Shown here piece after piece: positions 1-20,915 of a stretch of DNA of 37,549 nucleotides (position 1 is its first letter; every line of letters begins with the position of its first letter). This stretch comes from a virus. The translations under genes and the position numbers were made by a program. The stretch covers positions 1 to 37,549 of IMG/VR virus record IMGVR_UViG_3300029500_000006; one strand, written 5' to 3'. Below the pieces are notes generated by a model that was not told the DNA's origin, searched no databases, and worked only from the letters and a program-made list of their open reading frames with translations.

Positions 1-99
1 ATCAGGCTGACCTTTAATCCGGTGAATAAAAACCACTGGATAAAAAAGGTCTTTTTTGATATTCCGGATCCGAATGTGCTGACACATCACAGCACCTAC
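1..99. repeat. Terminal overlap; identical to 37451-37549 (circular closure of the contig)
   Basis: Read directly: both copies run atcaggctgacctttaatcc ... cacatcacagcacctac. The overlap lies inside the terL frame and joins it in phase. Confidence 0.95.
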
Positions 100-783
100 C
101 TGAACAACCGGTTCATAGATGAGGCATACCGTGCCAGAATGGATAGACGAAAGATTGTTGATCCGGAAGGGTATCAGATCTATGGACTGGGTGAATGGGG
201 CGAGATCGGCGGTCTGATTCTTCACAACTGGGAAGTACGGGAGTGCAGCCAGAATATAGCAGATTATGATGATTTTGCAATTGGGCAGGACTTTGGTTTT
301 AATCATGCCAATGCTATCTTGCCGCTCGGCTGGAAAGATGGAAACATCTATATCCTGCGTGAGCTGTATGGATTTGAAAAAGATACCGCTGAATGGATCG
401 CAGAAGCAAATGCAGCGGGCATTCCCAAAAAGCGGCAGATGTGGTGTGACTCAGCGGAACCGGATCGAATTAAAATGTGGAAAGATGCAGGATTCCGGGC
501 AAAGGGAGTAGATAAAGGCGGCTCTGCCGGATCCGTGAAAGCACAGATTGAATGGCTGAAAGGAAGCCCGGACCCGAAGGACAAAAGCAAAGTGATTGCT
601 CGAAAAATATTTGTGGATCCATCTTGCACCAATACAATAAAAGAACTGCAGCAGTGGAAATGGAAAAAGGATGAAAAGACAGGCGAATACCTGGATGAAC
701 CGGTGTCTGTGATGGATGATGCCATGGCAGCACTGCGATATGGAGTAGAAGGCTGGCGGAAGGCAAAACGCTGGCTTATTTAA
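1..783 (+). CDS. terL: Terminase large subunit, C-terminal part (continues from 36965-37549 across the circular junction)
   Basis: Frame 1 is open from base 1 to the stop at 781-783. The same frame continues from the ORF that runs off the window end. It sits between terS and portal. The joined product is about 422 aa. Confidence 0.9.
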   Translation: MRLTFNPVNKNHWIKKVFFDIPDPNVLTHHSTYLNNRFIDEAYRARMDRRKIVDPEGYQIYGLGEWGEIGGLILHNWEVRECSQNIADYDDFAIGQDFGFNHANAILPLGWKDGNIYILRELYGFEKDTAEWIAEANAAGIPKKRQMWCDSAEPDRIKMWKDAGFRAKGVDKGGSAGSVKAQIEWLKGSPDPKDKSKVIARKIFVDPSCTNTIKELQQWKWKKDEKTGEYLDEPVSVMDDAMAALRYGVEGWRKAKRWLI

Positions 784-811
784 TAACGAGAATTGCCAGA
801 AAGGAAGAAAT

Positions 812-2302
812 ATGCTGACAACAGAAGAAATAAGACAATTCATGGAAGAAGATAATGCTTCCAGAAAGAAGCAGTTCGCCAGAAAAGGGCAGGCATACTA
901 TGATGGTGATCACGACATAAAGGATTACCGGCTGTTCTATTACAACGATGATGGAGAACTGGTGGAAGATAAGACACGGAGCAATGTGAAAATAGCACAT
1001 CCATTTTTTACAGAACTTGTGGACCAGGCAGTACAGTATATTCTTTCTGGTGATGATGGCTTTGTAAGGACGGATGATCCAGCACTGCAGAATGAACTGG
1101 ATAAATATTTCAACCAGAATGAAGATTTTCTTGCAGAGTTATCTGAAGCACTGACCGGATGCCAGGCAAAAGGCTTTGAATATATGTTTGCCTATCGGAA
1201 CAAAGAGGATATGCTGTCTTTTATGTGTGCGGATTCTGTTGGTGTGGTGGAAGTCAGAGAGAAAGATACTGACGATGGTTGCGCTTATGTGATTTACTGG
1301 TACATTGACCGTATCGATAAAGGTGAAAAGACAATCAAACGTATTCAGGTATGGGATTCTGAAAAAGTATACTATTACGTCCAGAGTGACGAGGGAGAGA
1401 TTGAACCGGATGAATCTGAAAAAATCAATCCCAAACCACATGTTACATATCAGAAAAAAGGGGATAAAGCCATTTACTACAAAGATTTTGGCATTATTCC
1501 TTTTTTTCGTTTGGATAACAATAAAAAGCAGTTCAGCAGTTTAAAGACAGTAAAGGATCTGATCGATGACTATGATCTGATGGCATCCAGTCTGTCAAAC
1601 AACCTGATTGATTTTGACACACCGATTCATGTAGTCAAAGGGTTCCAGGGAGATGACCTGGGCGAATTGCAGCAGAATCTGAAAACAAAGAAGATCATCG
1701 GTGTGGATGAGGATGGTGGTGTAGAAGTTCATACCGTAGACGTTCCGTATCAGGCAAGGGAAGCCAAACTGAATCTGGATGAGAAGAATATCTACCGGTT
1801 TGGAATGGGACTGAATACAGCCGGTTTAAAGGACACCAACGCAACCACCAACATTGCAATTAAGGCTGCATACTCTTTGCTGGACCTAAAATGTTCAAAA
1901 CTGGAAATTAAGTTAAAACAGATGCTACGCAAACTTGTGAAGCTGGTAATCGATGAGATTAATGAGAAAAACAAAACTGCGTATCTGACCAGCCAGGTAC
2001 ATTTCGATTTTAGCCATGAAGTAATGTCAAATGAACAGGAAAATGCGCAGATTGCTTTGAATAACGCACAGGAGCAGCAAACACGTATTAATACACTGCT
2101 GTCACTGGCAGCACAGCTTGACAATGAAACACTGATGAAAAATATCTGTGATGTCCTAGATATCGATTATGAGAAAATCAAAGATAAACTTCCTGATCCA
2201 GACGAAGCAGACAATGATTTGAGTAGGGCACAGAACATTTTGGATGGGGTGAAGGCAGATGACGAAGGAACAGAAGGCGGTACTCCAGAGCCAACTGAAT
2301 AG
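812..2302 (+). CDS. Portal protein (SPP1 gp6-like)
   Basis: 496-aa ORF directly after terL, with RBS gaaaggaag. Size and position are typical of siphovirus portals. Confidence 0.85.
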   Translation: MLTTEEIRQFMEEDNASRKKQFARKGQAYYDGDHDIKDYRLFYYNDDGELVEDKTRSNVKIAHPFFTELVDQAVQYILSGDDGFVRTDDPALQNELDKYFNQNEDFLAELSEALTGCQAKGFEYMFAYRNKEDMLSFMCADSVGVVEVREKDTDDGCAYVIYWYIDRIDKGEKTIKRIQVWDSEKVYYYVQSDEGEIEPDESEKINPKPHVTYQKKGDKAIYYKDFGIIPFFRLDNNKKQFSSLKTVKDLIDDYDLMASSLSNNLIDFDTPIHVVKGFQGDDLGELQQNLKTKKIIGVDEDGGVEVHTVDVPYQAREAKLNLDEKNIYRFGMGLNTAGLKDTNATTNIAIKAAYSLLDLKCSKLEIKLKQMLRKLVKLVIDEINEKNKTAYLTSQVHFDFSHEVMSNEQENAQIALNNAQEQQTRINTLLSLAAQLDNETLMKNICDVLDIDYEKIKDKLPDPDEADNDLSRAQNILDGVKADDEGTEGGTPEPTE

Positions 2303-3851
2303 AGAAAAGAGAACGCTGAATGAACTGAAACAGGTATACCGGCAGGCATTGATGGACTGTGAAAAGAAAATCATGGAGCTGTCTGCCAGAACCGATCTGG
2401 AAAATCTGCAATCTATTATCTACCAGACGCGGTATCAGGAAGCAATACGGCAGCAGCTGGAGGGAATCTTGACAGCATTGCAGTCTGATTCCTATTCGAC
2501 AGTGTCTGATTACCTGTCCCGGTGCTATCAGGATGGCTATATTGGTGTGATGTATGATCTGCATGGTCAGGATATTCCGCTTATCATGCCGATTGACCAG
2601 AAAGCTGTGGTACGGGCAATACAGACAGATTCCAAGATCAGTAAAGGACTGTATAACCGGCTGGGAGAGGATGTTGGAAAATTAAAGACATCTATTCGGG
2701 CGGAAGTGTCCCGGGGAATTGCTGCAGGTTTTACCTGGAATGAAGTGGCTAAAAAGTTGGCAAAATCATTTAAAACTACAGAATTTTCAAAAGCTTACAA
2801 TAATGCAATGCGGATTGTCCGGACAGAAGGGCATCGGATACAGATTCAGTCAGCTATGGATGCGCAGCAGTTGGCAAAGGATCATGGTGCAGACATCGTA
2901 AAACAGTGGGATGCAACATTGGATGACAGAACCAGAGAAACGCACCGGATGCTGGACGGTCAGATCAGAGAACTGGATGAGCCGTTTGAGGTTGGTGGAA
3001 TGCAGGCAGATGCGCCGGGAATGTTTGGAATCGCTGCACAGGATTGTAACTGCAGGTGCGCACTGCTCCAACGAGCCAGATGGGAACTGGATGAAGATGA
3101 GCTGAATACCTTGAAAGAACGTGCAGAGTTCTTTGGACTTGACAAGACAAAGGATTTTGAAGATTTTAAGGAGAAATATTTTAAAGCAGCGGAGCAGTAT
3201 GAGGACAGAAAAGAAAAAACGATAAAAAATAATGTAGATGCTGCAGATATTCTCACACAGGAAGAAACAATTGAAAAGGCAAAGAAATACGGTCAAGAAT
3301 TATTGGATGATGTTTCGGTATTAAAATATGATAATGGTGATCCAATTACAGACTATTTGAATTTTAAGTTAAAATATGATGCTTTGCCGAGGGTGATTTC
3401 TGATGCAGAATTTGAAAATGAAAAAGTAAAAAAACAGGTTTGGTACCGGGGAGTTGCAAGCACTTCTGACATGTCTGCAAAAGATATGGTAGAAGCGTTT
3501 AAATATGGAAAAATGTATGCTGGCCGCGGAGTTTACGGATATGGTACCTATGCAGATAAAGATAGGAAAGTAGCAGAACTCTATGCTGGCAAAGATGATT
3601 CTGGTCGAATTATTGAAATGTTATTAACAGATGATGTAAAAACAGTTGATTTTGTAGAAATATTTACAGAATACGAAAAAACGGGAATTCCCAAAATTGT
3701 TGGCAATAAACCAGAGGCATATCAGGACATTCTTGGAAATGTTGGAGCTTATGCTGCAGTCAAAGGTTATGATGCAATTCTTTTAAATGGTTTTCAGAAT
3801 AAACAGCATGTGGTAATATTAAATCGTGGTAAAGTAATCGTTAAGGAGTGA
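2259..3851 (+). CDS. Head morphogenesis protein (MuF / SPP1 gp7 family) fused to a C-terminal ART-like domain
   Basis: MuF core motifs RIVRTEGHR, DDRTRETHRMLDGQ and CNCRCAL lie at about aa 185-270. An extra domain of about 200 aa (aa 330-530) carries WYRG, GYGTYAD-x-ELY and KQHVVILNRG. Its start overlaps the portal 3' end by 44 nt, and the RBS is ggggtgaagg. Confidence 0.85.
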   Translation: MTKEQKAVLQSQLNREKRTLNELKQVYRQALMDCEKKIMELSARTDLENLQSIIYQTRYQEAIRQQLEGILTALQSDSYSTVSDYLSRCYQDGYIGVMYDLHGQDIPLIMPIDQKAVVRAIQTDSKISKGLYNRLGEDVGKLKTSIRAEVSRGIAAGFTWNEVAKKLAKSFKTTEFSKAYNNAMRIVRTEGHRIQIQSAMDAQQLAKDHGADIVKQWDATLDDRTRETHRMLDGQIRELDEPFEVGGMQADAPGMFGIAAQDCNCRCALLQRARWELDEDELNTLKERAEFFGLDKTKDFEDFKEKYFKAAEQYEDRKEKTIKNNVDAADILTQEETIEKAKKYGQELLDDVSVLKYDNGDPITDYLNFKLKYDALPRVISDAEFENEKVKKQVWYRGVASTSDMSAKDMVEAFKYGKMYAGRGVYGYGTYADKDRKVAELYAGKDDSGRIIEMLLTDDVKTVDFVEIFTEYEKTGIPKIVGNKPEAYQDILGNVGAYAAVKGYDAILLNGFQNKQHVVILNRGKVIVKE

Positions 3852-3857
3852 TATGGG

Positions 3858-4079
3858 ATGAATAGACAAGATGTGGAATGGAGCAAATTTGCTTCTGGAT
3901 TGCTTGGCTATATTGATGCAGGACTTAGCAGGTTTATAGAAACAGATTATAAAATCGATTTAAATATGTCGATGGGGGAGATTCTTCATGAGTTACAGGA
4001 AAGTACCAGCATAGATCAGCTATCATCCGATTTGCAGCGTGTGGCAAAAGAATATGAACGGCATTCTAAAAAGCAATAA
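3858..4079 (+). CDS. Hypothetical 73-aa protein; candidate immunity or partner of the MuF C-terminal domain
   Basis: Strong RBS aaggag 7 nt upstream. It starts 7 nt after the MuF stop, in AT-rich DNA. Confidence 0.6.
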   Translation: MNRQDVEWSKFASGLLGYIDAGLSRFIETDYKIDLNMSMGEILHELQESTSIDQLSSDLQRVAKEYERHSKKQ

Positions 4080-4085
4080 AGTAAA

Positions 4086-4244
4086 ATGAAAATAGTTGAA
4101 GCCATACAAAAAGACGAAGAAATTAAAACGTTAAAAAGGGAGTACAAAGAAAAATATCATAAGAATGCTCCGCCATATAATTATGATCAGTTTAAAGGGC
4201 TGGATGATTATAAAGCATATCTGCGGAAGCAGTTGGAGAAATAA
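4086..4244 (+). CDS. Hypothetical 52-aa protein
   Basis: Hand-translated ORF MKIVEAIQKDEEIKTLKREYKEKYHKNAPPYNYDQFKGLDDYKAYLRKQLEK. The RBS is weak and the ORF is below the track size cutoff. Confidence 0.35.
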   Translation: MKIVEAIQKDEEIKTLKREYKEKYHKNAPPYNYDQFKGLDDYKAYLRKQLEK

Positions 4245-4246
4245 GT

Positions 4247-4348
4247 ATGATTGATTTATATTTGAAAATCAAAATCGGATGCTTTGTCATATCGGTGATA
4301 TTTTATGTGGTATGCATCATTTATACAGTTTGGAAAAATAGACACTGA
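4247..4348 (+). CDS. Hypothetical 33-aa hydrophobic peptide
   Basis: Hand-translated MIDLYLKIKIGCFVISVIFYVVCIIYTVWKNRH. GGAG lies 8 nt upstream, and a terminator follows immediately. Confidence 0.35.
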   Translation: MIDLYLKIKIGCFVISVIFYVVCIIYTVWKNRH

Positions 4349-4383
4349 TACCACTGATCAGAAATGGTTAGTGGTATTTTTAT
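4348..4383 (+). terminator. Intrinsic terminator
   Basis: Stem ATACCACT / AGTGGTAT with a 14-nt loop, followed by tttttat. Confidence 0.7.
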
Positions 4384-4683
4384 ACGCATTTTTAGAAAAA
4401 ACATTATTTTCTATGATTTATACAAAAATGAAATAGCCATGCCTGCTTTGAATATGTCAGCATGTACAATGTCAATTTCAAAACACGACATATATATGAC
4501 AATGATAAAAAAATGACAAATTGTGGTATTTGCATAAAAACAGTGGTATGAATATGTGCAGGGTGAATAAAAGTGAGAAGATGAGCAAAACTAGGTGATT
4601 TGCGCAACGTGAGAAAAGGTGTTATATATGAATTGTCGATGAGACAATGAAATTGCGCTGGCGCAAAAAAAGTAGTTAACTTT

Positions 4684-4719
4684 TGGAACTCATAAGTTAT
4701 AATAGACTTATGGAACTCA
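4684..4719 (+). promoter_or_regulatory. Promoter/operator of the RHH gene
   Basis: TATAAT at 4698-4703 sits between inverted repeat CATAAGT / ACTTATG (4691-4697, 4706-4712) and direct repeats TGGAACTCA (4684-4692, 4711-4719). The -35 element is weak. Confidence 0.55.
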
Positions 4720-4735
4720 AAAGTGAGGTGATTAC

Positions 4736-4903
4736 ATGAGTCCGAGAACTGGAAGACCAACAGAGTGTAGAAAAGACCATGATGTAAAAGTAAGAATTGA
4801 TGATTCTACTCACAAAAAATTATTGCAATATTGCGAAGAACATGGAGTAACGAAAGCAGAAGCTATTCGACAAGGAATTCAGTTGGTATTACAGAAAAAG
4901 TAA
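4736..4903 (+). CDS. Ribbon-helix-helix (CopG/Arc-like) DNA-binding protein, 55 aa
   Basis: Hand-translated MSPRTGRPTECRKDHDVKVRIDDSTHKKLLQYCEEHGVTKAEAIRQGIQLVLQKK. It shows the basic N-terminal strand plus two-helix pattern of RHH proteins. RBS is gtgaggtg. Confidence 0.7.
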   Translation: MSPRTGRPTECRKDHDVKVRIDDSTHKKLLQYCEEHGVTKAEAIRQGIQLVLQKK

Positions 4904-4947
4904 AAACAGTCGTAGCACCGACCAAAGCACAAACGACTGTTTAGGTT

Positions 4948-4991
4948 AGAAGTTTCCTTCTGTAAATATTATAATGCAGATCGAAACTTCT
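4948..4991 (+). promoter_or_regulatory. Second promoter/operator candidate, upstream of the antirepressor operon
   Basis: The 9-bp inverted repeat AGAAGTTTC / GAAACTTCT flanks TATAAT (4970-4975). TTAGAA lies 18 nt upstream. Confidence 0.45.
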
Positions 4992-5025
4992 TTCAAGAAC
5001 CAAAAATTGAAAGGAGTTTTTTGAA

Positions 5026-5253
5026 ATGGAACAGATTGAAAAAATGTTTTATGACTGGACAGATGATCAGACTGATAGCTGTGAGTTAAGAACAATGTAT
5101 GTAAAATTAGAAGATGAACTTACAAAACAGATTGGTAAAGAAAAATATTCAAAGTTTGAAGACCTGATTATGGATTGTATACTTTGCGAGAGATTGGAAG
5201 CGTTTAAAGGCGGTTTCAAACAGGCAACAAGTTTATGGAAGGAATGCCTTTAG
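5026..5253 (+). CDS. Hypothetical 75-aa protein
   Basis: RBS gaaaggag. It lies between the RHH and antirepressor genes. Confidence 0.65.
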   Translation: MEQIEKMFYDWTDDQTDSCELRTMYVKLEDELTKQIGKEKYSKFEDLIMDCILCERLEAFKGGFKQATSLWKECL

Positions 5254-5267
5254 GCGGAGGTAGTGAC

Positions 5268-6035
5268 ATGGAATTAGTAAGTACATCAACACAGACACCC
5301 ATTGAAATCGCGTTGGGAATTGATGAAGACGGAATGACAACAGCAAGAGCACTATATGATTTTTTGGAGTTAAGGAAAGCAGATTTTGCAAGGTGGGCCA
5401 AATCAAACATCACAGGAAATGAGTTTGCTATAGAAAATGAGGATTATTGGCGAGTCCGCATTGATGCGGAGACGCCGACAGGTGGAGTGGTAAAGCGAGA
5501 GGATTACAAACTCACAGCGGGATTTGCCAAGAAACTTTCCATGCAGTCAAAAAGCGAGCGTGGTGAACAGGCTCGTCAGTATTTCCTTAAGGTAGAAGAA
5601 AAATTAAAAGAGGCTACCCGTCGGGCTCCGATGACAGTTCCGGAGCAGATCCAGCTTCTTGCCATGGGAAATGTGGAACTTAACCAGAAGGTTGACAACC
5701 TCGACAAAAAGATTGAGCAGTTGGAATACGATTTGCCGATCCTTGGCATTGAAATTGATAAAATCACAACAGCGGTGAAAAAGAAAGGTGTACAGTGCCT
5801 TGGAGGAAAGAACAGTAATGCCTATCAGGATAAATCACTCCGGGGAAAGGTATACAATGATATTTACCGGGAACTGAAACGTCAGTTTGGAGTAAGTACA
5901 TACAAAGCAATTAAACGAAGCCAGTGCGATACGGCAGTTGGAATAATTACCGAATATCAGCTTCCTTATGTACTGGTGGAACAGGTACAGCTTCAAAATG
6001 GCCAGTTAGGTTTATGGGGCAGTACAGGAAATTAA
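5268..6035 (+). CDS. Phage antirepressor (AntA/ANT-like N-terminus, ORF6C-like C-terminus)
   Basis: Contains TARALYDFLEL, FARWAKSNI, YKLTAGFAKKLSMQSKSERGEQARQYF and a C-terminal KRQFGVSTYKAIKRSQ segment. Start moved to ATG 5268 (RBS ggaggt); the track ORF begins at 5235. Confidence 0.8.
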   Translation: MELVSTSTQTPIEIALGIDEDGMTTARALYDFLELRKADFARWAKSNITGNEFAIENEDYWRVRIDAETPTGGVVKREDYKLTAGFAKKLSMQSKSERGEQARQYFLKVEEKLKEATRRAPMTVPEQIQLLAMGNVELNQKVDNLDKKIEQLEYDLPILGIEIDKITTAVKKKGVQCLGGKNSNAYQDKSLRGKVYNDIYRELKRQFGVSTYKAIKRSQCDTAVGIITEYQLPYVLVEQVQLQNGQLGLWGSTGN

Positions 6036-6048
6036 ATAATTGAGATGG

Positions 6049-6078
6049 AGAGAGCTTGGGAACAGGCTCTCTTTTATA
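6049..6078 (+). terminator. Intrinsic terminator after the antirepressor gene
   Basis: Stem AGAGAGC / GCTCTCT with a 10-nt loop, then tttata. Confidence 0.65.
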
Positions 6079-6177
6079 ATTCAGAAAGAAGGTGTTGACT
6101 ATGAAGAAGCAGGGAAAAAGAGCAGGGTAGAAAGGCGGTGATCCAATATCTCCCAGCTATGGGTAAAATAGCACGTG

Positions 6178-6197
6178 GCACCCGCAAGGGTGTTTTT
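6178..6197 (+). terminator. Small terminator-like hairpin
   Basis: CACCC-gcaa-GGGTG followed by ttttt. Confidence 0.45.
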
Positions 6198-6326
6198 CTT
6201 ATGTCCTGAATCATGACAATAAATCGATTCATGTCATATTCGTCAGTGATGACGTAAAACATCGGCAAATATCAAGTGTAATCGAGACATAACTCGTAAA
6301 AATTGTAGAATGAAAGGAACGATGAG

Positions 6327-6974
6327 ATGACATTAGAGGAATTATTAAAAGCACAGAATCTTACAGGCAAACAGGTAACCGCAATCATCGATGGTATGAA
6401 AGAAAATAAAATCTTCACAGCTTCAGAGGAAAATCTGGACATCAGATACGGAAAATTAAAGACCGATCATGATGCTTTGGTTGCAAAGGATGCAGAAAGC
6501 CAGAAATTGATTGAAGAACTCCAGAAGGCGACAAAAGGACAGGACGCTGTTCAGGCAAAGATCACAGAGTATGAAGCAACCATTACACGGCAGCAGGAAG
6601 AACTACAGCAGGCAAAAACGGAAGCTGCATTAAAGGTGGGACTGCTTTCAGAAGGAGCAAAGGCAACTGACATCGATTATCTGATTTTCAAACTGAATCA
6701 TGACAGTGACTGGAAGCCGGAACTTGGCGAGGACGGTCAGATCAAAGGCTTCAAAGACAAAATGGAGTCACTGAAAACACAGTGCCCGAACCAGTTTGAG
6801 ACAGCTTCCGGTGATGGTGATGACGGATACAGACGCATGGATGATGGAAAACTTCCGGGTGGCGATGATCCAAAAGATTCTGTAACAAAAGAGGAATTTG
6901 CAAAAATGGGTTATAAATCCAGAGTGGAGCTGAGAGAAAGCAATCCGGATTTATATGAAAAACTGACAAAGTAA
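6327..6974 (+). CDS. Scaffolding protein (GP20-like minor structural protein)
   Basis: 215-aa coiled-coil-rich acidic protein immediately upstream of the capsid gene. RBS gaaaggaa. Confidence 0.8.
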   Translation: MTLEELLKAQNLTGKQVTAIIDGMKENKIFTASEENLDIRYGKLKTDHDALVAKDAESQKLIEELQKATKGQDAVQAKITEYEATITRQQEELQQAKTEAALKVGLLSEGAKATDIDYLIFKLNHDSDWKPELGEDGQIKGFKDKMESLKTQCPNQFETASGDGDDGYRRMDDGKLPGGDDPKDSVTKEEFAKMGYKSRVELRESNPDLYEKLTK

Positions 6975-6986
6975 AAGAAAGGATGA

Positions 6987-7991
6987 ATGAGAATGGCAGA
7001 TTTAAGCAAAACTACAACACTTGTAAATGGTGACGTATTTGATCCACAGGTTGTGTCTGATATGATCAATGCGAAAGTGGAAAAGAAAGCGGTAATGACC
7101 GGGTATATCACAGTGGATAATACATTGCAGGGACAGCCGGGCAGCACGGTGACAATTCCAAAATGGGGTTACATCGGTGAAGCAGAGGAGTATGCAGAGG
7201 GAGAGCCGATCGACAAGAGCAAAATGGCATTTACTACTGCATCTTATGGTATCAAGAAAATCGGTAAAGGTGTCCGCCTGACAGACGAGGCGCAGCTTTC
7301 CGGTTATGGCAACCCGATGGGAACAGCGGTCAACCAGATTGCAATGTCCATCAGCGAAAAGCTGGATAATGATCGTGTAAAAGTCATGTATGAGTCTCCG
7401 AATATCGTAGATGATACATCTGCAGTGATCAAATATACCGCAATCGTTGATGGTGTGGATAAGTTCGGCGAGGAAGAGGACAGCAAAAAAGTAATCCTGA
7501 TTCATTCCAAACAGAAGACGCAGCTTCGAAAAGATCCGGATTTCATTTCCGCAGATAAATACGAGTCTGGTGTAATGGTAAACGGTTCTATCGGCAGAAT
7601 CGCAGGCTGTGATGTTGTAGTATCCAACAAAGTTGAAAGCCATAAAGAATGGTATAAGATCGACAGCGCCGGCAAAGAAGTTGTAGAAAGCGGTGGAGAC
7701 GGAAGCACCAAGTTCAATCTCTCAGATGTTATCAAATCCCTTCCGTTTGCGAAAGTTGGTGACAAAGTAACAAAGGTGACTACAGAAGCATTTTTCAATC
7801 CGATCATCAAACTGAACAATGATGCCGAGACAGAGGATGATATGCCGGCAATTACTTACTTCCTGAAGCGTGGAAACCTTGTGGAGCATGACCGCGAACC
7901 GGGTGTTGCTGACGATATTGTCTGCACCGCTTATGGAATGCCGGCATTAACCAATGATGAGAAGGTCGTAATTTTAAAGGTTAAAGCCTGA
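6987..7991 (+). CDS. Major capsid protein
   Basis: 334-aa ORF after the scaffold gene. The N-terminus MADLSKTTTLVNGDVFDP is typical of capsid proteins of this phage type. ATG 6993 is an alternative start. Confidence 0.85.
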   Translation: MRMADLSKTTTLVNGDVFDPQVVSDMINAKVEKKAVMTGYITVDNTLQGQPGSTVTIPKWGYIGEAEEYAEGEPIDKSKMAFTTASYGIKKIGKGVRLTDEAQLSGYGNPMGTAVNQIAMSISEKLDNDRVKVMYESPNIVDDTSAVIKYTAIVDGVDKFGEEEDSKKVILIHSKQKTQLRKDPDFISADKYESGVMVNGSIGRIAGCDVVVSNKVESHKEWYKIDSAGKEVVESGGDGSTKFNLSDVIKSLPFAKVGDKVTKVTTEAFFNPIIKLNNDAETEDDMPAITYFLKRGNLVEHDREPGVADDIVCTAYGMPALTNDEKVVILKVKA

Positions 7992-11095: not shown

Positions 11096-14000
11096 TTGGA
11101 ATTATTTAAACTTTTTGGAACGATTGCCATAAATAACGGCGATGCAAATAAGGCGATTGATGATACGACCGGGAGAGCTGAGAAATCCGAATCCAGAATG
11201 AGCAGTGCTTTTAAAAAGATTGGTGCTGCGATCACTACCTACTTTGCAGTAGATAAGTTGGTTTCCTTTGGAAAATCCGTAGTGGATACCACAGCATCTT
11301 TTGAAGATGGAATGCTGAAAGTACAGTCCTTGTCCGGAGCAACGCAGGATGAATACCAGAAGTTGTCTGATGCAGCCTTAAATTATGGCTCCACAACGGC
11401 TTGGACGGCTAAAGATGTTTCAGATGCAATGGGTTACATGGCTTTGGCAGGTTTTGATACAAATGAAATTCTGGAATCGACATCCGGAATGCTTTCTCTG
11501 GCATCTGTATCCGGTGAAGATCTGGCTACGGTTACAGATATTCTGACCGATTCCATGACGGGATTTGGAGACAGCGCATCGGATGCAAGTCGATATGCGG
11601 ATGTACTGGCTACGGTCCAGGCAAAGTCAAATACCACAGTCGGTGATCTGGGAGAAGCATTTACCTATGTTTCTTCACTGGCAGGTACCTATAAGTATTC
11701 TCTGGAAGATGTATCGGCTGCCTTGGGAACGATGGCGAATGCCGGAGTAAAAGGCTCCATGGCAGGTACTTCGTTATCCAGTATCATCACTCGTCTTGGA
11801 ACCAATACCAGTGGTGCACGAGATGCAATTAAAGCACTGGGAGTTGAATTTTATAACCAGGATGGTACAGCACGCAGCTTGGGAGATGTTATCAAAGACC
11901 TGTGTGATGCGACAGAGGGCATGGATGTGGAACAGAAAGCCGCTCTTGCATCAACGGTGGCCGGTGCAGAAGCTCAGAAAGGTTTGCTGGCCATTTTGAA
12001 TCAGGGATCCGGCGCATATACAGATCTTCAGGAAAAGCTGAATAACTGTACCGGAGCGGCCAATGACATGGCTTCTAATATGGAGGCTGGTCTTGGAGGA
12101 GCCATCAGAAGTATGTCATCTGCATGGGAAGGGTTCAAAATCAATCTGGGAGAGAAATTTGAGGAACCTATCGGAAATGCAATCCGGAATGCAGCATCCT
12201 GGCTGTCAGAAACGGCAACACCAAAGCTTATGGATTTTATCGACCGGGCTGTAAGCGGATTTGAAACATTAAGAGAGCACCTTCAGCCGGCCGTTGACAA
12301 GATAAAGGATGCCTTTGATCATCTGGCAACAGCTCTCGCACCAATCAAAGAGAAAATAGATGAATATGTATCCAGCGGTAAGGCAGCGGAAGATGCATCG
12401 AATTTGTTGGATACAGCATTGGATCTGGTTGTTGGTGCGCTTGAGGTGGCTGCTGACAGTATCAATGTCCTGAGTGACTTTATCGAAAATATCATTCAGG
12501 GATTTAAGGACATGAAACAGTGGTGCAGCGAAAATAAGACTGCATTGGAATTACTGGCAGTGGCGGCAGGAACGATCACTGGGCTGATCATTGCGGCAAA
12601 TGCCAGTCAGATTGCCCTGAATGCAACTATGGGAGTCGCAAATGGATTGCTGATTGCCGGATCCGTAGCGGAAGGCATCATGAGTGCGGCAACCACCATT
12701 TGGTCCGGTGTATGCACGGTAGCTACCGGAGCAACCACGGCTCTTGGCGCAGCATTTACATTTCTTACATCACCGATTGGTCTCATCATCATTGCGATTG
12801 GAGCGGCGATTGCAGTAGGAATCCTGCTGTATAAGAACTGGGACAAGATCAAGGAAAAACTGTCTGAACTTTGGAAACATGTCAAAGAAATCTGGGAAAA
12901 GATCCGGTCAGCGATTGTTGAAAAGGTAGAGGAAATCAAAGAAAAAGTTGAAAGTGGATTTAACGTTGTCAAGGAAACAGCTGAGAATATCTTCAACGGT
13001 ATCAAAGATTTTATTTCAACGGTGTGGGAAGGCATCAAAAATGTAGTAAAATTTGCACTTTTATTCATCGGTGAACTGATGTCAGCTGCTTTCCAGATCA
13101 TTACCATTCCGTTTCAGCTTATCTGGGAGAATTGTAAGGAATACATTATTGCGGCATGGGAGTTTATCAAAAATGCTGTGATAAGTGCGCTGGATACCAT
13201 CAAATCAGTGATTGAAACGGTATGGAATGCCATTGTAGGTTTCTTTGAACCAATCCTTCAGACGATAAGTGGACTGTTTCAGACAGCATGGGATTTCATT
13301 TCGACAACCATCACAACAGCATTGACGATTATACAGACCATAATTGAAACGGTATGGAATGCAATCGTGGATTTTCTGACACCAATTCTTGAGACAATAA
13401 AAAATGTTGTACAGACCGTGTGGGATGGAATAACAACTACGATCACAACCATACTGGGAGTGATCCAGACTGTGATCACAACCGTATGGGATGTGATTAA
13501 AGCGGCAATCTCGACAGTCCTGGATGCAATCGAGTCAGTGATCACAACCGTGTGGGATGCCATCAAGTTGGTTATTATGACGGTCATGGGTGCCATTAAG
13601 GGAGTGTTCACGGCGGCCTGGGATGCAATCAAGACAACGGTCAAAAATGCAATCGATACTGTAAAAAATCACGTATCAAACGGTCTGAACGGCGCCAAGG
13701 AAATTGTATCGAATAATCTGGGGGCGATCAAAGACAAATTTTCCAGTATTTTTGAGACGATAAAGAATGTGGTAAAAAATGCCATTGATAAGATCAAAGG
13801 TTTTTTCAATTTCGAATGGTCTTTACCGAAGCTGAAGATGCCACATCCGAAGATTGAAGGTGAGTTCAGTTTGAATCCGCCATCGGTACCGCATTTTAGC
13901 ATTGACTGGTATAAAAAGGCAATGAATGATCCGATTTTAATGACAAAACCGACTGCGTTTGGAATTAATAATGACGGACAGATCATGGCTGGAGGCGAGG

Positions 14001-14221
14001 CCGGTGATGAAGTTGTGAGTGGTGCTTACAAGTTGAAAATGATGATTTCAGAAGCGGTGGCGGAACAGAATGAAGGCATGATCACAATCCTTTCCAAAAT
14101 ACTTGACGCAATTCTTGCCATTGATGAGAATATGGGCGGAAATCTGCGGAAGGCACTGGAAGGGGCAAGTATTGCGATAAATCGAAGAGATTTTGCACGG
14201 TTAGTAAATGAGGTACGGTAA
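11096..14221 (+). CDS. Tape measure protein
   Basis: 1041 aa, TTG start with RBS gaaggtgag. It has a hydrophobic central segment and a helical repeat-rich C-terminal half. Confidence 0.9.
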   Translation: MELFKLFGTIAINNGDANKAIDDTTGRAEKSESRMSSAFKKIGAAITTYFAVDKLVSFGKSVVDTTASFEDGMLKVQSLSGATQDEYQKLSDAALNYGSTTAWTAKDVSDAMGYMALAGFDTNEILESTSGMLSLASVSGEDLATVTDILTDSMTGFGDSASDASRYADVLATVQAKSNTTVGDLGEAFTYVSSLAGTYKYSLEDVSAALGTMANAGVKGSMAGTSLSSIITRLGTNTSGARDAIKALGVEFYNQDGTARSLGDVIKDLCDATEGMDVEQKAALASTVAGAEAQKGLLAILNQGSGAYTDLQEKLNNCTGAANDMASNMEAGLGGAIRSMSSAWEGFKINLGEKFEEPIGNAIRNAASWLSETATPKLMDFIDRAVSGFETLREHLQPAVDKIKDAFDHLATALAPIKEKIDEYVSSGKAAEDASNLLDTALDLVVGALEVAADSINVLSDFIENIIQGFKDMKQWCSENKTALELLAVAAGTITGLIIAANASQIALNATMGVANGLLIAGSVAEGIMSAATTIWSGVCTVATGATTALGAAFTFLTSPIGLIIIAIGAAIAVGILLYKNWDKIKEKLSELWKHVKEIWEKIRSAIVEKVEEIKEKVESGFNVVKETAENIFNGIKDFISTVWEGIKNVVKFALLFIGELMSAAFQIITIPFQLIWENCKEYIIAAWEFIKNAVISALDTIKSVIETVWNAIVGFFEPILQTISGLFQTAWDFISTTITTALTIIQTIIETVWNAIVDFLTPILETIKNVVQTVWDGITTTITTILGVIQTVITTVWDVIKAAISTVLDAIESVITTVWDAIKLVIMTVMGAIKGVFTAAWDAIKTTVKNAIDTVKNHVSNGLNGAKEIVSNNLGAIKDKFSSIFETIKNVVKNAIDKIKGFFNFEWSLPKLKMPHPKIEGEFSLNPPSVPHFSIDWYKKAMNDPILMTKPTAFGINNDGQIMAGGEAGDEVVSGAYKLKMMISEAVAEQNEGMITILSKILDAILAIDENMGGNLRKALEGASIAINRRDFARLVNEVR
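13205..13650 (+). repeat. Degenerate in-frame repeats within the tape measure gene (TVWxAI motif)
   Basis: The motif recurs as ETVWNAIVGFFEPIL, ETVWNAIVDFLTPIL, QTVWDGITT, TTVWDVIKA, TTVWDAIKL and AAWDAIKT. The string attgaaacggtatggaatgc occurs twice. Confidence 0.8.
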
Positions 14222-17290: not shown

Positions 17291-17566
17291 ATGACAGATT
17301 TAGGATTTTTAGCGGATTTTATGATTCCGGTAATCGTAGGGATTTGCCTGTGTGTTGGCTATGTGATCAAAAAATGGGTAAAAGACGTGGATAACAAATA
17401 CATTCCGACAGTCTGTGCACTGCTGGGAGTGATCCTTTCTATCTGGATCAGCGGATGGAATGTTTCCCCTGCTGTGATCTTGAGCGGATTATTCAGCGGT
17501 CTGGCATCCACAGGACTGCATCAGCTGTTCAAACAGTATATCGAAAAGAAAGAAGGTAATGAGTAA
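17291..17566 (+). CDS. Holin
   Basis: 91 aa with multiple TM segments and a charged C-terminus, directly upstream of the endolysin gene. Confidence 0.8.
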   Translation: MTDLGFLADFMIPVIVGICLCVGYVIKKWVKDVDNKYIPTVCALLGVILSIWISGWNVSPAVILSGLFSGLASTGLHQLFKQYIEKKEGNE

Positions 17567-18543
17567 TGGCATACAACACGAAGGAAATATGGGCTTCTGC
17601 AACCAACTATGGAGCGCATAGAGCATTGCACAGTATCAGATATATCGCAGTGCATTTTACCAGTAATGATGGAGACACAGCAGAAAATAACGGTAAATAT
17701 TTTCGAGGTGAAAACAGGAAGGCATCAGCGCACTACTTCGTGGATGATACGACTGTGGTGCATTCGGTTCCCGATGATCGTGTGGCATGGGCTGTTGGTG
17801 GAAGCAAGTACAACAACGGTGGCGGCCGGCTATATGGAATTGCCAAAAATGCAAACACGCTGAACGTGGAGCTGTGCGACACGATAAAAAATGGAACCGT
17901 AAAAGCAACAGAAGCGACGATCAATAACGCGCTGGATCTTATAAAAGGGCTGATGAGCAAATACAACATCCCGGTTGATCGTGTAATCCGACACTACGAC
18001 GTCAACGGAAAGCCATGCCCGTCCTACTGGGTGGATGATGCACTCTGGGAGCAGGAGTTTCACGGTAGACTAACGCAACCAAGTATTCCGGACGGACTTG
18101 CTGATCAGGCGGCAGCTGACGGAAACTGGTACTATTACAGAAACAATCTGGTGGCGGCAGATTACACCGGGCTTGCACAAAATGTGAACGGTTGGTGGTA
18201 TGTCCGGAACGGTGCGGTTGATTTCGGGGCAAATACCGTAGCTCAGAATGAGTATGGCTGGTGGAAGATAACCAACGGAGCTGTTGATTTTAACTACACA
18301 GGAATCGCCCAGAATGAAAATGGCTGGTGGAGAATTGAAAATGGAAAAGTAAACTTTGATTATACTGGTTTGGCAAAAAATGAAAATGGATGGTTCTACC
18401 TGCGGGAAGGCGCAGTAGACTTCAATTATACCGGACTGGCAAAAAATGATCAGGGCGTGTGGTTCGTACGCGATGGAAAAGTCGACTTTGATTATTCCGG
18501 AGAAGTGACCTGTAAGATTGTAAAAGGACAGGTCGCGGTATAA
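17566..18543 (+). CDS. Endolysin: N-acetylmuramoyl-L-alanine amidase plus cell-wall-binding repeats
   Basis: The N-terminal domain is amidase_2-like (IAVHFTSNDGDTAENN, AHYFVDD, LNVELC, VIRHYDVNGKPCP). The C-terminal half holds about six 20-aa repeats. Confidence 0.9.
   Translation: MAYNTKEIWASATNYGAHRALHSIRYIAVHFTSNDGDTAENNGKYFRGENRKASAHYFVDDTTVVHSVPDDRVAWAVGGSKYNNGGGRLYGIAKNANTLNVELCDTIKNGTVKATEATINNALDLIKGLMSKYNIPVDRVIRHYDVNGKPCPSYWVDDALWEQEFHGRLTQPSIPDGLADQAAADGNWYYYRNNLVAADYTGLAQNVNGWWYVRNGAVDFGANTVAQNEYGWWKITNGAVDFNYTGIAQNENGWWRIENGKVNFDYTGLAKNENGWFYLREGAVDFNYTGLAKNDQGVWFVRDGKVDFDYSGEVTCKIVKGQVAV
18118..18516 (+). repeat. About six tandem 20-aa cell-wall-binding repeats (coding)
   Basis: Repeated pattern NGWWY/K/R-x-NGAVDF-x-YTGLA/IAQN, read from the translation. 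Confidence 0.85.
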
Positions 18544-18805: not shown

Positions 18806-18833
18806 AAACGGTTAGTAACACGTTAGTAACAAA
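18806..18833. repeat. 28-nt repeat copy B, overlapping the integrase stop codon
   Basis: See copy A. The integrase stop (18823-18825) lies inside the second GTTAGTAACA unit. Confidence 0.85.
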
Positions 18834-19968
18834 TCTTTATCTTCTCAATTTCACTCCGGAGGTCTTCCAGAGTACGGTGTCCGTAGACATCGTTTGTAAC
18901 ATCTCCACCAAAGCTGTGGCCGAGCATTCGTTTCCGGTCGTTCTCCTTTACTTCATATTTTTCACATAAGGAAGAGAAGGTATGCCGGCAGTCATGCGGG
19001 GTATGCTTTTCACCTGTTGGAGCAATGGCAATGCCAAGGTCAGACAGGGCAGCGTTCATATCTTTCCGGAACTTCTGTGTTTGACAGCCAAGTATATTTT
19101 GGATTCCGTATTTCTCGCAACGATCTGCAACCATATTATAAATTCCGGAATAGATCGGTACAGTCCGGATCTTACTGGAACGTGTCTTAATACCGCCGTG
19201 AAAACTTTTATCGTCCAAATTGATTGCTATTTTGGAATATTCTGTAATCCGGAAACCGCTGTAACACATGATCAGCAGCATCTGGATTACATCATTTTCT
19301 TTATTTTCCCAGAGAATTTTCATCTCATCATCTGTAAACGGCACTCCGTGCTCGTCATCGTCCTCTGTATTGATTCGCACATGTACAGAGTAATCTTTAT
19401 CACACAATTCATAAATTTCAGCGTAAGCGTACATCTGATGCATCAGAGACACGATCAGTTCTTTGCTGGCATGTTTCAACGGGCAGGAATCAATGATGTT
19501 TTGCAGATCCTGATGGCGCAGATCGGCAAATACTTTATCGTGTATGGCAGAACAGTTTTTATATGCAGCCCGGGTGGAATTTTTTGACGATTCAGATAAC
19601 TTCCGGCTCTGATCACGCTCATATTTCCACTGATAGAATTCCTCATACACATCGGAAAAGGTCTTTTTGGCAGCTTCCAGCTTCTCGTCAGATGCTTTTG
19701 TAAGATTGTAGTCCGCCAGGATAGATTGGATCAGCTTGCTGCCGGAAATATCTGCAGTCGCGGCAACCGTTTTTTCGTACCCTGGATAATAAGTACCGGC
19801 TCGGTAAGCAGTCAACACCGCAAAGCCAACCATCCAGTCGGAAACATAACAGATTGCTTTTGGAGTTTTTGGGACACCGTTCAGCGTAAATTCCGTGGTA
19901 GGCGGATGGACTGCATAAGGATTGCGCCGCCCTTTGCCAAGATATTTGATGGAGCCGTTAGTAGCCAT
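18823..19968 (-). CDS. int: Tyrosine site-specific integrase
   Basis: 381 aa. The C-terminal catalytic region reads HTPHDCRHTFSSL ... MLGHS ... VYGHRT (R-H-R-Y type). Confidence 0.92.
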   Translation of the reverse strand: MATNGSIKYLGKGRRNPYAVHPPTTEFTLNGVPKTPKAICYVSDWMVGFAVLTAYRAGTYYPGYEKTVAATADISGSKLIQSILADYNLTKASDEKLEAAKKTFSDVYEEFYQWKYERDQSRKLSESSKNSTRAAYKNCSAIHDKVFADLRHQDLQNIIDSCPLKHASKELIVSLMHQMYAYAEIYELCDKDYSVHVRINTEDDDEHGVPFTDDEMKILWENKENDVIQMLLIMCYSGFRITEYSKIAINLDDKSFHGGIKTRSSKIRTVPIYSGIYNMVADRCEKYGIQNILGCQTQKFRKDMNAALSDLGIAIAPTGEKHTPHDCRHTFSSLCEKYEVKENDRKRMLGHSFGGDVTNDVYGHRTLEDLRSEIEKIKICY

Positions 19969-20222: not shown

Positions 20223-20915
20223 CTATTTATGAGTATGTGTGGTGTAAGATTTATTGCATGTACGAAGTCCGTCAATGTGTTCGAAGAGATCTGGTTTTAT
20301 TGGAGCACCTAATGGATCGAGAATAAAGTCAATTCCTTCTCTTCGTGCAAGTTTGGCAGCAGAAACAAAATCACTATCTCCAGATATAAGAACAATTTGA
20401 TCTACTTGATGCTTATATGCCATAGATGCAATATCTAAACCTATTTTCATATCTACACCTTTTTGATCGATTTCAAGACAGAAATCATTTTCTTGCAAAT
20501 CTGAAAACTGGATGCTTCCATTACATAGCTTCTTTACTGTTTGCGGGCGAATAGTATAATGAGCTTGTTCTTCAGCTAATTTTCCTAATCGAATAGCAAA
20601 TTTCCTTTTCTTTTTTAATTCGTTAAAAAAGCGTATAGTCCATTCATACAAGTCTGTTTTGCCTAAATCAACCTGTTGTTTTAAAAACGGGTGATAGATA
20701 CGTTTATTGGATGGAGCACAATCGTAGTAAAAGATTCTATACAAATCATTGTTTTCACCATGAGAATTTAAGTGACGTTTACAGTAGTTTGCCAATTCTA
20801 TGGCACGTTCTTCTGCTGTGGTATCACCAAAGACTGCTTGTGCGCGTCGTCTGTAAAAACCGCCATCAACCAAAATTGCTGTTTTCAAATGTTGCTGTGA
20901 ATGTCGTGAACTCAT
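20223..20915 (-). CDS. NYN-domain (LabA/PIN-like) putative ribonuclease
   Basis: 230 aa with TAILVDGGF near the N-terminus, QKGVDMKIGLDIASMAY, and QIVLISGDSDFVSAAKLARREGIDF. RBS ggagg. The DNA is AT-rich. Confidence 0.8.
   Translation of the reverse strand: MSSRHSQQHLKTAILVDGGFYRRRAQAVFGDTTAEERAIELANYCKRHLNSHGENNDLYRIFYYDCAPSNKRIYHPFLKQQVDLGKTDLYEWTIRFFNELKKKRKFAIRLGKLAEEQAHYTIRPQTVKKLCNGSIQFSDLQENDFCLEIDQKGVDMKIGLDIASMAYKHQVDQIVLISGDSDFVSAAKLARREGIDFILDPLGAPIKPDLFEHIDGLRTCNKSYTTHTHK

Follow-up and report, generated by a model that had tools for sequence, protein, structure and literature searches.

A MuF head protein of a temperate gut phage carries an exchangeable ART-fold domain with a co-inherited small partner, a candidate inhibitor

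The window analysed here is a 37,549-nucleotide stretch of viral DNA, the IMG/VR record IMGVR_UViG_3300029500_000006. Family identification places in it a terminase gene (22-783), an SPP1-type portal gene (812-2302), a capsid gene (6987-7991) and, on the minus strand, an integrase gene (18823-19968); a scaffold-position gene (6327-6974) is assigned by its place in the head module, not by a family match. Directly downstream of the portal gene, in the head module, lies a gene for a 530-residue putative MuF-effector fusion (2259..3851, plus strand, as are all the features described below), identified from the ORF list, Pfam and the PHROG head/minor-head families. Prophage DNA about 95% identical to this phage is present in Eubacterium ramulus ATCC 29099, and the source of the MuF fusion is a temperate gut-Firmicute siphophage. 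The conserved carrier part of the protein, the MuF core (amino acids 145-269; 2691..3065), matches Phage_Mu_F (PF04233) in Pfam with an E value of 1.9e-17 and 64.5 bits, against a gathering cutoff of 29.6, while the NCBIfam model of SPP1 gp7 (TIGR01641) gives 33.6 bits, under the model cutoff. The original prediction had the MuF core end near CNCRCAL, and the Pfam match indeed stops just past this motif. It also had the remainder of the ORF lying in AT-richer DNA, which is borne out by a drop in GC content at about nt 3150, from 0.51 (2851-3150) to 0.32 (3151-3450), followed by values of 0.30-0.37 up to about nt 5250.

The GC drop begins at a junction and Lys/Glu-rich linker (about amino acids 300-330; 3156..3248) that carries a conserved EDFKEKY motif, the point at which C-terminal cassettes are swapped, and was delimited from the extensions of relatives, blastn and GC content. 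The C-terminal extensions of 75 MuF relatives all start with (E/D)(E/D)FK(E/Q)KYL and then diverge. The first 300 amino acids of the gene product are 59-100% identical in 79 viral contigs, 73 of which carry other C-termini, including Gln_amidase, PBECR2, HExxH-type and JAB-like domains. These 79 relatives sort into 11 C-terminal clusters, and at least ten C-termini other than the ART-like domain are found on MuF relatives at 59-95% identity. Most representative loci of the other cassette types have a small downstream ORF of their own. The proposal of a polymorphic MuF cassette, checked by this comparison of C-termini, is thus upheld, and the limits first suggested for it, 3160-4383, coincide with real recombination breakpoints: one close relative (L095) aligns collinearly with this phage until nt 3179 and resumes at nt 4349 (blastn; realigned segment 4349-4398), and other relatives lose collinearity at nt 4381. 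The swap unit is 3180-4348.

Beyond the linker, amino acids 331-530 (3249..3848) make up the putative effector domain, modelled by AF2 with high confidence (pLDDT 94, pTM 0.89) as a helical N-terminal part followed by a beta core. The tail sequence alone has no match in Pfam, PHROGs, NCBIfam or PDB sequences, nor in GenBank phages by megablast and tblastn. Searched as a profile against the PDB, it gives nothing but non-significant matches, one of them to the Y-motif of PARP10 (E 2.1); this sole weak sequence match to a solved ART pairs the Tyr motif of the domain with the GxGVYFA segment. Relatives of the domain have weak Pfam matches to ART-PolyVal and PARP. When the model was compared with the PDB by Foldseek, the matches were almost all ARTs, namely ParT, PARP10/12/13/14/15, RES, AcrIF11, exotoxin A and cholera toxin, with tRNA 2'-phosphotransferase also among the structural neighbours; TM-scores to solved ARTs are low (0.31-0.39). 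Against BFVD, uncharacterised phage proteins come first (TMq 0.63-0.68), followed by ART-PolyVal-like proteins at E values of about 1e-4. Judged from this model, the tail is an ART-fold domain, as had been proposed from the letters of the sequence. The top PDB match, an ejection-protein chain of cyanophage A4 (9k3a_B), was discarded; it aligns poorly (rmsd 20.6) and its source paper does not describe an ART.

The motifs to which attention had been drawn are found where expected: W395-Y396-R397-G398, Y431 and Y442, which are 11 positions apart, and Q516-H517 within KQHVVILNRG. Conservation was scored over 198 copies of the domain. R397 (codon 3447-3449) is kept in 196 and is never His; Y431 (3549-3551) is kept in 192, and Y442 (3582-3584) in 179, with Phe in 11 more. 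These counts, together with the weak PARP10 GxGVYFA alignment, support the view that Tyr-x10-Tyr is a PARP-like feature. The suggestion that Q516 and H517 stand in for the catalytic Glu fared less well: they are not conserved over the 198 copies, the two columns varying among D/N/K/S and Y/H/E/F, and it is D505 (3771-3773) that is kept instead, in 192 copies. This residue belongs to the GYDAI strand, which precedes KQHVVILNRG. In the last strand, N522 is kept in 193 copies and R523 in all 198 (3822-3827). There is no conserved Glu in the domain over the 198 copies; the only one near the core, E453 in the strand IIEML, was weighed for the role of catalytic Glu and dismissed, being R, E or K across the family. 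The six residues R, Y, Y, D, N and R hardly vary across more than 190 copies whose overall identity is 20-30%, and in an alignment of 72 diverse proteins, made without the giant proteins, R, G, Y, D and R are invariant. In the secondary structure of the model, R397, Y431 and D505 stand at or beside the predicted strands E64-69, E100-103 and E176-178, in ART order. From this order, the conservation and the H-Y-D precedent discussed below, the three residues would correspond to the canonical strand-1, -2 and -5 positions, with D505 on the catalytic strand, and the signature is best read, on sequence grounds, as R-Y-D. This combination has no counterpart among the triads described in those parts of the ART literature that were compared here.

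Six nucleotides past the MuF stop codon begins an ORF for 73 amino acids (3858..4079), preceded by a Shine-Dalgarno sequence, AAGGAG (3843..3848, read from the sequence), which lies within the last MuF codons, 9 nt upstream of the ATG. The AF2 model of its product has three helices (pLDDT 88) and no fold match in the PDB (Foldseek; best E 2.8), and the protein has no match in Pfam, NCBIfam or PHROG; its 74 homologs are all unnamed. Homologs 48-51% identical occur in four loci (L001, L003, L081, L083), either 3-6 nt downstream of the domain gene or overlapping it by 4 nt. Such spacings led to rejection of the idea that readthrough of the MuF TGA could extend translation into the 73-aa ORF, which is in the same frame. 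When 6799 ORFs were scanned with HMMs of the small family, 73 of the 81 matches were directly downstream of an ART-like ORF, a count that is partly circular because the HMMs were built from downstream ORFs; a reverse search from the small protein also retrieves MuF-ART genes upstream. A partner of this family lies directly downstream of 52-56 of 69 distinct ART-like genes, and about 19-25% of ART-like genes are without a recognised one. The co-variation expected of a cognate pair is seen among homologs: domain and partner identities to this phage fall in step (65/51, 62/49, 60/52, 54/49, 51/42, then 43-46/20-33%), whereas the carriers of those pairs are just 21-32% identical to the carrier here, or absent. 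The pair also occurs alone in a non-phage chromosomal context (L001/L002); taken over all these loci, domain and partner travel as a two-gene cassette among MuF, portal-MuF and standalone contexts. Partner genes also occur as orphans, in L073 next to a MuF cassette of another type and in L174 on a chromosome, a pattern typical of orphan immunity genes. The 73-aa ORF, singled out early as the obvious partner candidate, is a real, co-inherited partner of the domain, and its product is probably the inhibitor of the domain. Even in very distant members of the family, the small proteins have motifs in common that follow one another in the same order, h-[S/D/E]-R-h-[A/G] close to the N-terminus and D-L-P/S close to the C-terminus; an hhalign comparison between the group that resembles the protein of this phage and the most distant groups is marginal (P 0.009). 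To our knowledge, such sharing is unusual for immunity proteins, and it could point to a common cofactor or chaperone role instead.

Two further ORFs follow, one of 52 aa (4086..4244), which matches phrog_8816 at E 1.1e-9, and a hydrophobic mini-ORF of 33 aa (4247..4348) of uncertain coding status, taken from the ORF list, with weak holin/DUF1056-like matches only (Pfam, PHROG). Folding and collinearity mark the right border of the swap unit with an intrinsic-terminator-like structure (4347..4383), made of a 14-bp hairpin at 4347-4378 (dG -18.7 kcal/mol, z -5.0, none of 200 shuffles as stable) next to a U-run, although a simple terminator scan did not pick up the hairpin. The original prediction, that two mini-ORFs and a terminator close the unit, therefore stands as far as the ORFs, hairpin and U-run are concerned; but both ORFs are confined to copies of this phage that are at least 97% identical, and so they are inside its swap unit but outside the conserved two-gene module.

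Clustered at 50% identity, the family of the tail domain comprises 2385 clusters. In roughly two thirds of the members sampled, the domain is fused to MuF; PF04233 is present in 39 and PF06152 in 9 of 72 diverse members. Other settings of the family are multidomain proteins of the polyvalent type and contigs that appear to come from lytic or jumbo phages; a fusion to NUDIX and DUF3626 is seen in one member, and an additional ART of the classical kind in two. A high-GC member used as query matched only 'hypothetical protein' genes, those of Gordonia phages GodonK and Phendrix. Both domain and partner belong to large families that are unannotated in current databases. Two existing names, Jamet's Ct_MAD and Iyer's MuF-C, were weighed for the domain and set aside; in the parts of these sources considered, both denote the C-terminal region of Mu gpF-type MuF (COG2369), a region that Iyer assigns to the PBECR nuclease fold.

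The arrangement recalls the MuF polymorphic toxins of temperate phages described by Jamet et al. 2017 (PMC5576092). In both, the MuF N-terminus adjoins a portal gene in the DNA-packaging/head module, the N-termini of close relatives are joined to exchanged, unrelated C-termini, a small, toxin-type-specific ORF (less than 150 amino acids; 73 here) is directly downstream, and the phage is temperate and of a Firmicute, as the integrase and prophage DNA indicate here. Unlike Jamet's toxins, the cargo here is outside annotated toxin domains, and the toxin and immunity roles are putative. Experimental precedents for a MuF toxin with an adjacent, non-enzymatic immunity protein are Bxa/Bsi and Apk2 (PMC11699363; PMC5576092), and Gln-deamidase cassettes on sister MuF proteins have been reported for the Bxa relatives (PMC11699363), as is the case here. 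Bxa is described as Arg-specific, with a catalytic Glu, E820, and is accompanied by Bsi/BAH (PMC11699363), whereas the domain studied here has R-Y-D and no ADP-ribosylhydrolase gene nearby.

[quoted passage not shown] The MuF protein of this phage has no Pfam match to PF18760 at E <= 1; weak matches are seen in 5 of 34 and 6 of 72 relatives, with a best E value of 3.5e-6, and two individual matches (16.8 and 25.6 bits) are under the 31.2-bit cutoff. As far as PMC5512222 and PMC9503650 were covered, the domain and ART-PolyVal have in common the ART fold, an Asp in place of Glu on what is here the presumed strand 5, a Tyr on what is here the presumed strand 2, and an occurrence in phage virion-associated proteins, in MuF fusions and sometimes as several copies in giant proteins. 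The domain differs by an invariant Arg (YRG), not His, on its presumed strand 1, by the Asn-Arg, which is a further invariant feature, and by a helical extension at its N-terminus; the portions of the two papers considered make no mention of a conserved small partner gene for ART-PolyVal. MuF-ART fusions of the VIP2 type are known from the E. faecalis EFV toxin and from Microbacterium phages Percival and Goodman (PMC7302621). The present protein resembles these and T4 Alt in being a MuF-ART fusion and in carrying an ART-like domain that would travel in or on the head and presumably enter the cell along with the DNA; however, T4 Alt and the VIP2 type are R-S-E enzymes (PF03496), while the domain here keeps the Arg but, as read from the sequence, has GxGxY and not STS on its presumed strand 2, and the MuF protein has no Pfam match to PF03496. 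With the H-Y-E ARTs of the PARP/diphtheria type, Tyr-x10-Tyr is held in common, His being replaced here by Arg and Glu by Asp. ParT/ParS and RES-Xre, whose toxins are among the best structural matches, show the same two-gene toxin-neutraliser logic and also occur as a standalone chromosomal pair. Their antitoxin is encoded upstream and binds DNA (Xre/DUF2384). The partner of the present domain is encoded downstream, 70-110 residues long, helical and without a DNA-binding signature, and there is no sequence similarity to these systems.

The reading we favour, with a probability of about 0.55, is that the gene encodes a polymorphic MuF effector carried by the virion and countered by a cognate inhibitor. 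The N-terminal 300 residues are the carrier, a MuF minor head protein that, if it behaves like SPP1 gp7, would sit on the portal within the capsid, and the C-terminal 200 residues are the cargo, an exchangeable domain of ART fold from a large uncharacterised clade. Its presumed NAD pocket would be formed by the Arg of strand 1 (YRG), the Tyr-x10-Tyr of strand 2 and the next helix, and the Asp of strand 5 (GYDAI), with the clade-specific Asn-Arg lying on the last strands. The fold and its conservation are established; that its activity is an NAD-dependent ADP-ribosylation of a cytoplasmic target is what we infer. The effector would enter with the DNA at infection or be freed at lysis, and the 73-residue protein, translated from its own RBS, would most likely act as an immunity protein that binds and blocks the domain in the producing cell or lysogen. 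Domain and partner move together as a cassette between the contexts listed above.

That the domain instead serves host takeover or counters host defence, as an enzyme like T4 Alt that modifies host proteins, for example RNA polymerase or defence factors, early in infection, with the small protein acting as a folding or packaging chaperone, specificity subunit or activator, seems somewhat unlikely. The fusion of the domain to a virion protein, seen in roughly two thirds of members, is as proposed for head-packaged ARTs in the parts of PMC5512222 and PMC9503650 considered, and the presence of the family in polyvalent-type proteins and on apparently lytic or jumbo contigs is in keeping with such an enzyme. 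Close spacing or start-stop overlap of the two genes suggests stoichiometric co-production, and the motifs common to the small proteins across the family point the same way. Yet small genes orphaned from any ART-like gene (L073, L174) would be odd if the small protein were a chaperone or subunit dedicated to the domain, the pair persists as a standalone module in a non-phage context, and the domain is interchangeable on the same MuF backbone with the recognised toxin domains Gln_amidase and PBECR2.

A small chance is left to an ART-like fold with another chemistry, either that of an NAD+ glycohydrolase (RES/Tne-like) or that of a nucleic-acid ADP-ribosyltransferase (DarT-like). The architecture would then be as in the effector-inhibitor reading, the substrate alone being different. 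Such a chemistry is suggested by the RES toxin and tRNA 2'-phosphotransferase, which stand beside protein ARTs among the structural neighbours, by the extra Asn-Arg and strand-1 Arg, which depart from the H-Y-D given for ART-PolyVal, and by the members with NUDIX and DUF3626 or a second, classical ART; the closest sequence family, ART-PolyVal, is nevertheless predicted to modify proteins (PMC5512222, in the part considered). It is very improbable that the domain is a catalytically dead structural or binding part of the head protein and the downstream ORF an unrelated small phage gene. A non-canonical triad and the lack of a sequence match between the protein of this phage and any curated ART model would fit, and the original prediction did offer an inactive binder as an option. 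This option is unlikely, since D505, N522 and R523 are near-invariant; the six signature residues persist through more than 190 divergent copies, the small gene accompanies the domain into unrelated carriers and non-phage DNA, and the domain is dispensable for the MuF backbone, as 73 of the 79 relatives are without it.

MuF-toxin fusions and head-packaged ARTs are established ideas of which few members have been studied (Bxa, Apk2, EFV, T4 Alt). The present locus is an entry to a far larger clade, with an odd catalytic signature, unannotated in the libraries searched and accompanied by a candidate inhibitor. Because the prophage that contains it resides in a human gut bacterium that can be cultured, it is directly testable. 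We put forward tentatively, as a possibility short of an even chance, that domain and small partner constitute an unrecognised two-component family, over 2000 clusters strong at 50% identity, and a major MuF cargo lacking annotation in Firmicute, actinobacterial and jumbo phages; that the R-Y-D plus N-R site has a chemistry or a target (nucleic acid, small molecule, immune signal) unlike those of known ART clades; and that the three-helix partner represents a new class of ART regulator, serving also as an orphan protective gene in chromosomes. If the domain is active, it would define a new clade of ARTs together with a new family of inhibitors, it would provide better annotation for thousands of phage 'hypothetical' C-termini, and it would bear on the use of virion-borne effectors by temperate gut phages.

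The window is the genome of a temperate SPP1-like siphophage, with genes for the small terminase (36513-36968), the large terminase (22-783), a capsid protein (6987-7991), a tape measure (11096-14221), an amidase endolysin carrying an Amidase_2 domain and four choline-binding repeats (17566-18543) and, on the minus strand, an integrase (18823-19968). An NYN-domain protein is encoded near the integrase (20223-20915, minus strand), a 643-aa PcfJ-like protein at 29157-31088 (plus strand), and a product containing Ig-like and glucodextranase-B domains at 34789-35844 (plus strand), just 5' of the small terminase gene. The MuF gene (ORF 2259-3851, 530 aa) lies directly 3' of the SPP1-type portal gene (812-2302). 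Its product matches Pfam Phage_Mu_F at aa 145-269 (E 1.9e-17), and the PHROG minor-head families span about its first 350-400 aa.

The tail of this protein (aa 331-530) has no match in Pfam, PHROGs, NCBIfam, PDB sequences or GenBank phages. A word-indexed protein search gave 9, then 44 relatives, and HMMER on 1.84 billion cluster representatives returned 2385 clusters at E <= 1e-3, of which 885 also pass E <= 1e-10. In most clusters the domain forms the C-terminus of proteins of 450-620 aa; some family proteins, of 1000-2700 aa, carry 3-8 matched stretches. Four giant proteins (P0052, P0054, P0074 and P0085, 964-2703 aa) show 6-8 stretches, P0052 also ending in a classical ADPrib_exo_Tox domain, and in P0101 the domain occurs alongside NUDIX and DUF3626. 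A jumbo-phage contig (L049, the 327-kb IMG/VR contig 3300028800_000001; also L064) encodes at 1216-7800 five ART-like paralogs that stand alone and measure 329-345 aa. Four lie in tandem, and two have a recognisable small partner 3' of the gene or overlapping its end; a 1019-aa family member lies elsewhere on the contig. Two relatives resemble assembly artefacts: P0001, in which roughly aa 445-482 (window-protein numbering) have no counterpart, and P0009, with unrelated sequence after ...VASTSD.

The ART fold originally proposed for the tail domain is well supported. An AlphaFold2 model built from a 34-sequence alignment has pLDDT 94 and pTM 0.89. In a Foldseek search of the PDB, the first match, the cyanophage A4 ejection protein, was rejected: it aligned poorly and is not called an ART in its paper. 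It was followed, at modest TM-scores of 0.31-0.39, by ParT, PARP14/15/13/10/12, a RES toxin, an anti-CRISPR protein (6kyf, which we take to be AcrIF11), exotoxin A, cholera toxin and KptA. Uncharacterised phage proteins head the BFVD list (TMq 0.63-0.68, E 1e-14 to 1e-9); then come a Microbacterium 'protease and MuF-like fusion' (TMq 0.51, E 2.8e-7) and proteins annotated ART-PolyVal-like (about E 1e-4). Several domain relatives have sub-threshold Pfam matches to ART-PolyVal and PARP. The sole sequence-level match to a solved ART places GvYGnGtYF on the PARP10 GKGVYFA segment (E 2.1).

From 165 diverse proteins, 198 near-complete copies of the domain were aligned to the family HMM and scored for conservation. 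The motifs quoted in the original prediction all lie at the residues it assigned, and its PARP-like Tyr-x10-Tyr pair is real: Y431 is kept in 192 copies and Y442 in 179, with Phe in 11 more. R397 (196/198), G398 (187), G427 (194), G429 (197), G503 (194), Y504 (187), D505 (192), N522 (193) and R523 (all 198) are likewise retained; a separate alignment, with 72 members, shows no variation at all at R, G, Y, D and R. The model places R397 in strand E64-69, Y431 in E100-103, Y442 in the next helix, D505 where E176-178 begins, and N522-R523 just past E187-190. Since R397, Y431 and D505 are ordered as ART strands 1, 2 and 5 should be, the signature was read as R-Y-D plus N-R, and its R-Y-D residues would line the NAD pocket. 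Q516-H517 had been assigned the position of the catalytic Glu. These columns are variable, as is E453, and the model and conservation point to D505 as the most likely catalytic acid.

The domain is an exchangeable part of the head protein. GC content falls from 0.51 at 2851-3150 to 0.32 at 3151-3450 and stays low until about 5250, in agreement with the AT-richer DNA noticed after the MuF core. Among 79 viral contigs with relatives of the first 300 aa of MuF, the tail domain is confined to 6, whose identity is at least 97%. The remaining 73 (59-95% identical) bear at least 10 unrelated C-termini, among them Gln_amidase (PF15644), the PBECR2 nuclease (PF18810), several HExxH types and a JAB-like type; this is the cassette swapping that the suggested comparison of C-termini was to reveal. 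They part ways right after a common motif, (E/D)(E/D)FK(E/Q)KY, located near aa 300-308, and in most representative loci a different small ORF lies just 3' of the MuF gene. At the DNA level, a relative with 89% identity (L095) shows collinearity as far as nt 3179 and aligns again at 4349-4398; the swap unit in the window lineage is therefore 3180-4348, almost exactly the interval first singled out (3160-4383). The prophage of Eubacterium ramulus ATCC 29099 (L080) has an identical tail domain and DNA about 95% identical over nt 1-4381, and is collinear again from 6128, so that 4382-6127, between the terminator and the scaffold gene, constitutes a second variable slot. In this prophage, as in most of the near-identical contigs, the slot is occupied by another segment, about 1.15 kb long. 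In the window, the slot encodes a ribbon-helix-helix protein (4736-4903) preceded by a promoter-like TTAACT-16-TATAAT (4676-4703), a 75-aa ORF (5026-5253) and an AntA/ORF6C antirepressor (5235-6035).

The 73-aa ORF (3858-4079) predicted as partner starts 6 nt past the MuF stop codon, with AAGGAG 9 nt upstream. Two mini-ORFs follow, at 4086-4244 (phrog_8816, E 1.1e-9) and 4247-4348 (a hydrophobic product), and a 14-bp hairpin with a U-run (4347-4378, dG -18.7 kcal/mol, z -5) ends the block. The hairpin is the terminator-like element of the original prediction; the mini-ORFs, seen only in near-identical copies of the window phage, are outside the conserved domain-partner module.

Partner homologs (48-51% identity; 41% in the L012-L016 group) begin 3-6 nt 3' of the domain gene, or have a 4-nt overlap with it, as in L081, L083 and L012-L016. 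In L003 the domain is a standalone 199-aa gene behind a 701-aa head protein, with the partner homolog 3' of it. In L001/L002 a standalone 224-aa domain gene and its partner (1410-2299) stand among non-phage chromosomal genes (DUF4300, SurE, TetR, alcohol dehydrogenase), a setting seen in two or more gut metagenome samples, and look like a toxin-antitoxin-like remnant or mobile pair. Behind more distant domain genes lie small proteins of either of two other types. The first (103-110 aa, VLWDRLAG...DYEI...ELP..LK.LV) aligns well with the window type, W8, Y18, D30-Y31, L55 and L59 being invariant; the other (50-125 aa, M-x-P-E-L-S-R-R-L-G ... D-L-P-x-W) shares just two colinear motifs with it (hhalign P 0.009). 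HMMs of the three types match 81 of 6799 ORFs across all loci, 73 of them directly 3' of an ART-like ORF, a count that is partly circular because the HMMs were trained on such ORFs; the remaining 8 are start-codon artefacts, an L025 copy split from its ART-like gene by an ORF, or orphans. A partner is present for 52-56 of 69 distinct ART-like genes. A search seeded with the small protein found 74 homologs, all unnamed, those on phage contigs again 3' of MuF-ART genes.

As predicted, the partner co-varies with the domain, their identities to the window declining together: 65% (domain) and 51% (partner) in L081, 62 and 49% in L001, 60 and 52% in L003, 54 and 49% in L083, 51 and 42% in L014, and 43-46 and 20-33% in L085-L088. 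The carrier is 27, 32 and 21% identical in L081, L083 and L014, absent in L001 and L003, and 28% identical or without meaningful alignment in L085-L088. The domain-partner pair is mobile, and the small helical protein, closely spaced and with its own ribosome-binding site, is inherited with the domain. AF2 models the small protein as three helices (pLDDT 88), and the search for structural neighbours of this model found none.

By analogy with Bsi, the counterpart of Bxa, and with the immunity proteins of Apk2 (PMC11699363), the partner would bind and block the domain in the producer. That it is a chaperone is less favoured, given the standalone chromosomal pair and the orphan copies, none of which has an ART-like gene: one beside a MuF with a JAB-like C-terminus (L073, 3989-4261), a frameshifted one (L079, 3918-4189), and one on a bacterial chromosome (L174, 3501-3833), just 3' of a 23S_rRNA_IVP-family gene and with no ART-like remnant within 3.5 kb. 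Both favour an inhibitor; what chiefly calls for caution is that distant partners have motifs in common.

PMC5512222 gives H-Y-D as the signature of ART-PolyVal, the closest curated family. The tail-domain clade has Arg instead of His at strand 1 and misses the Pfam threshold; it is a relative of ART-PolyVal, not a member, and assignment to PF18760, PF03496 or the PARP family was rejected. A full-text literature search found no description of the R-Y-D branch or of the partner family, which is absence of evidence only. Five defining genomic features of MuF polymorphic toxin systems are present at the locus, whose architecture is of this kind. By analogy with SPP1 gp7 and T4 Alt (PMC5576092, PMC5512222), the MuF protein may keep its cargo tethered within the capsid so that it enters the cell together with the DNA, and the domain would then use NAD+ to modify a cytoplasmic target. 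The exchangeable domain of this head protein, with its conserved putative active site, represents a separate R-Y-D lineage of the ART fold whose nearest neighbour is ART-PolyVal.
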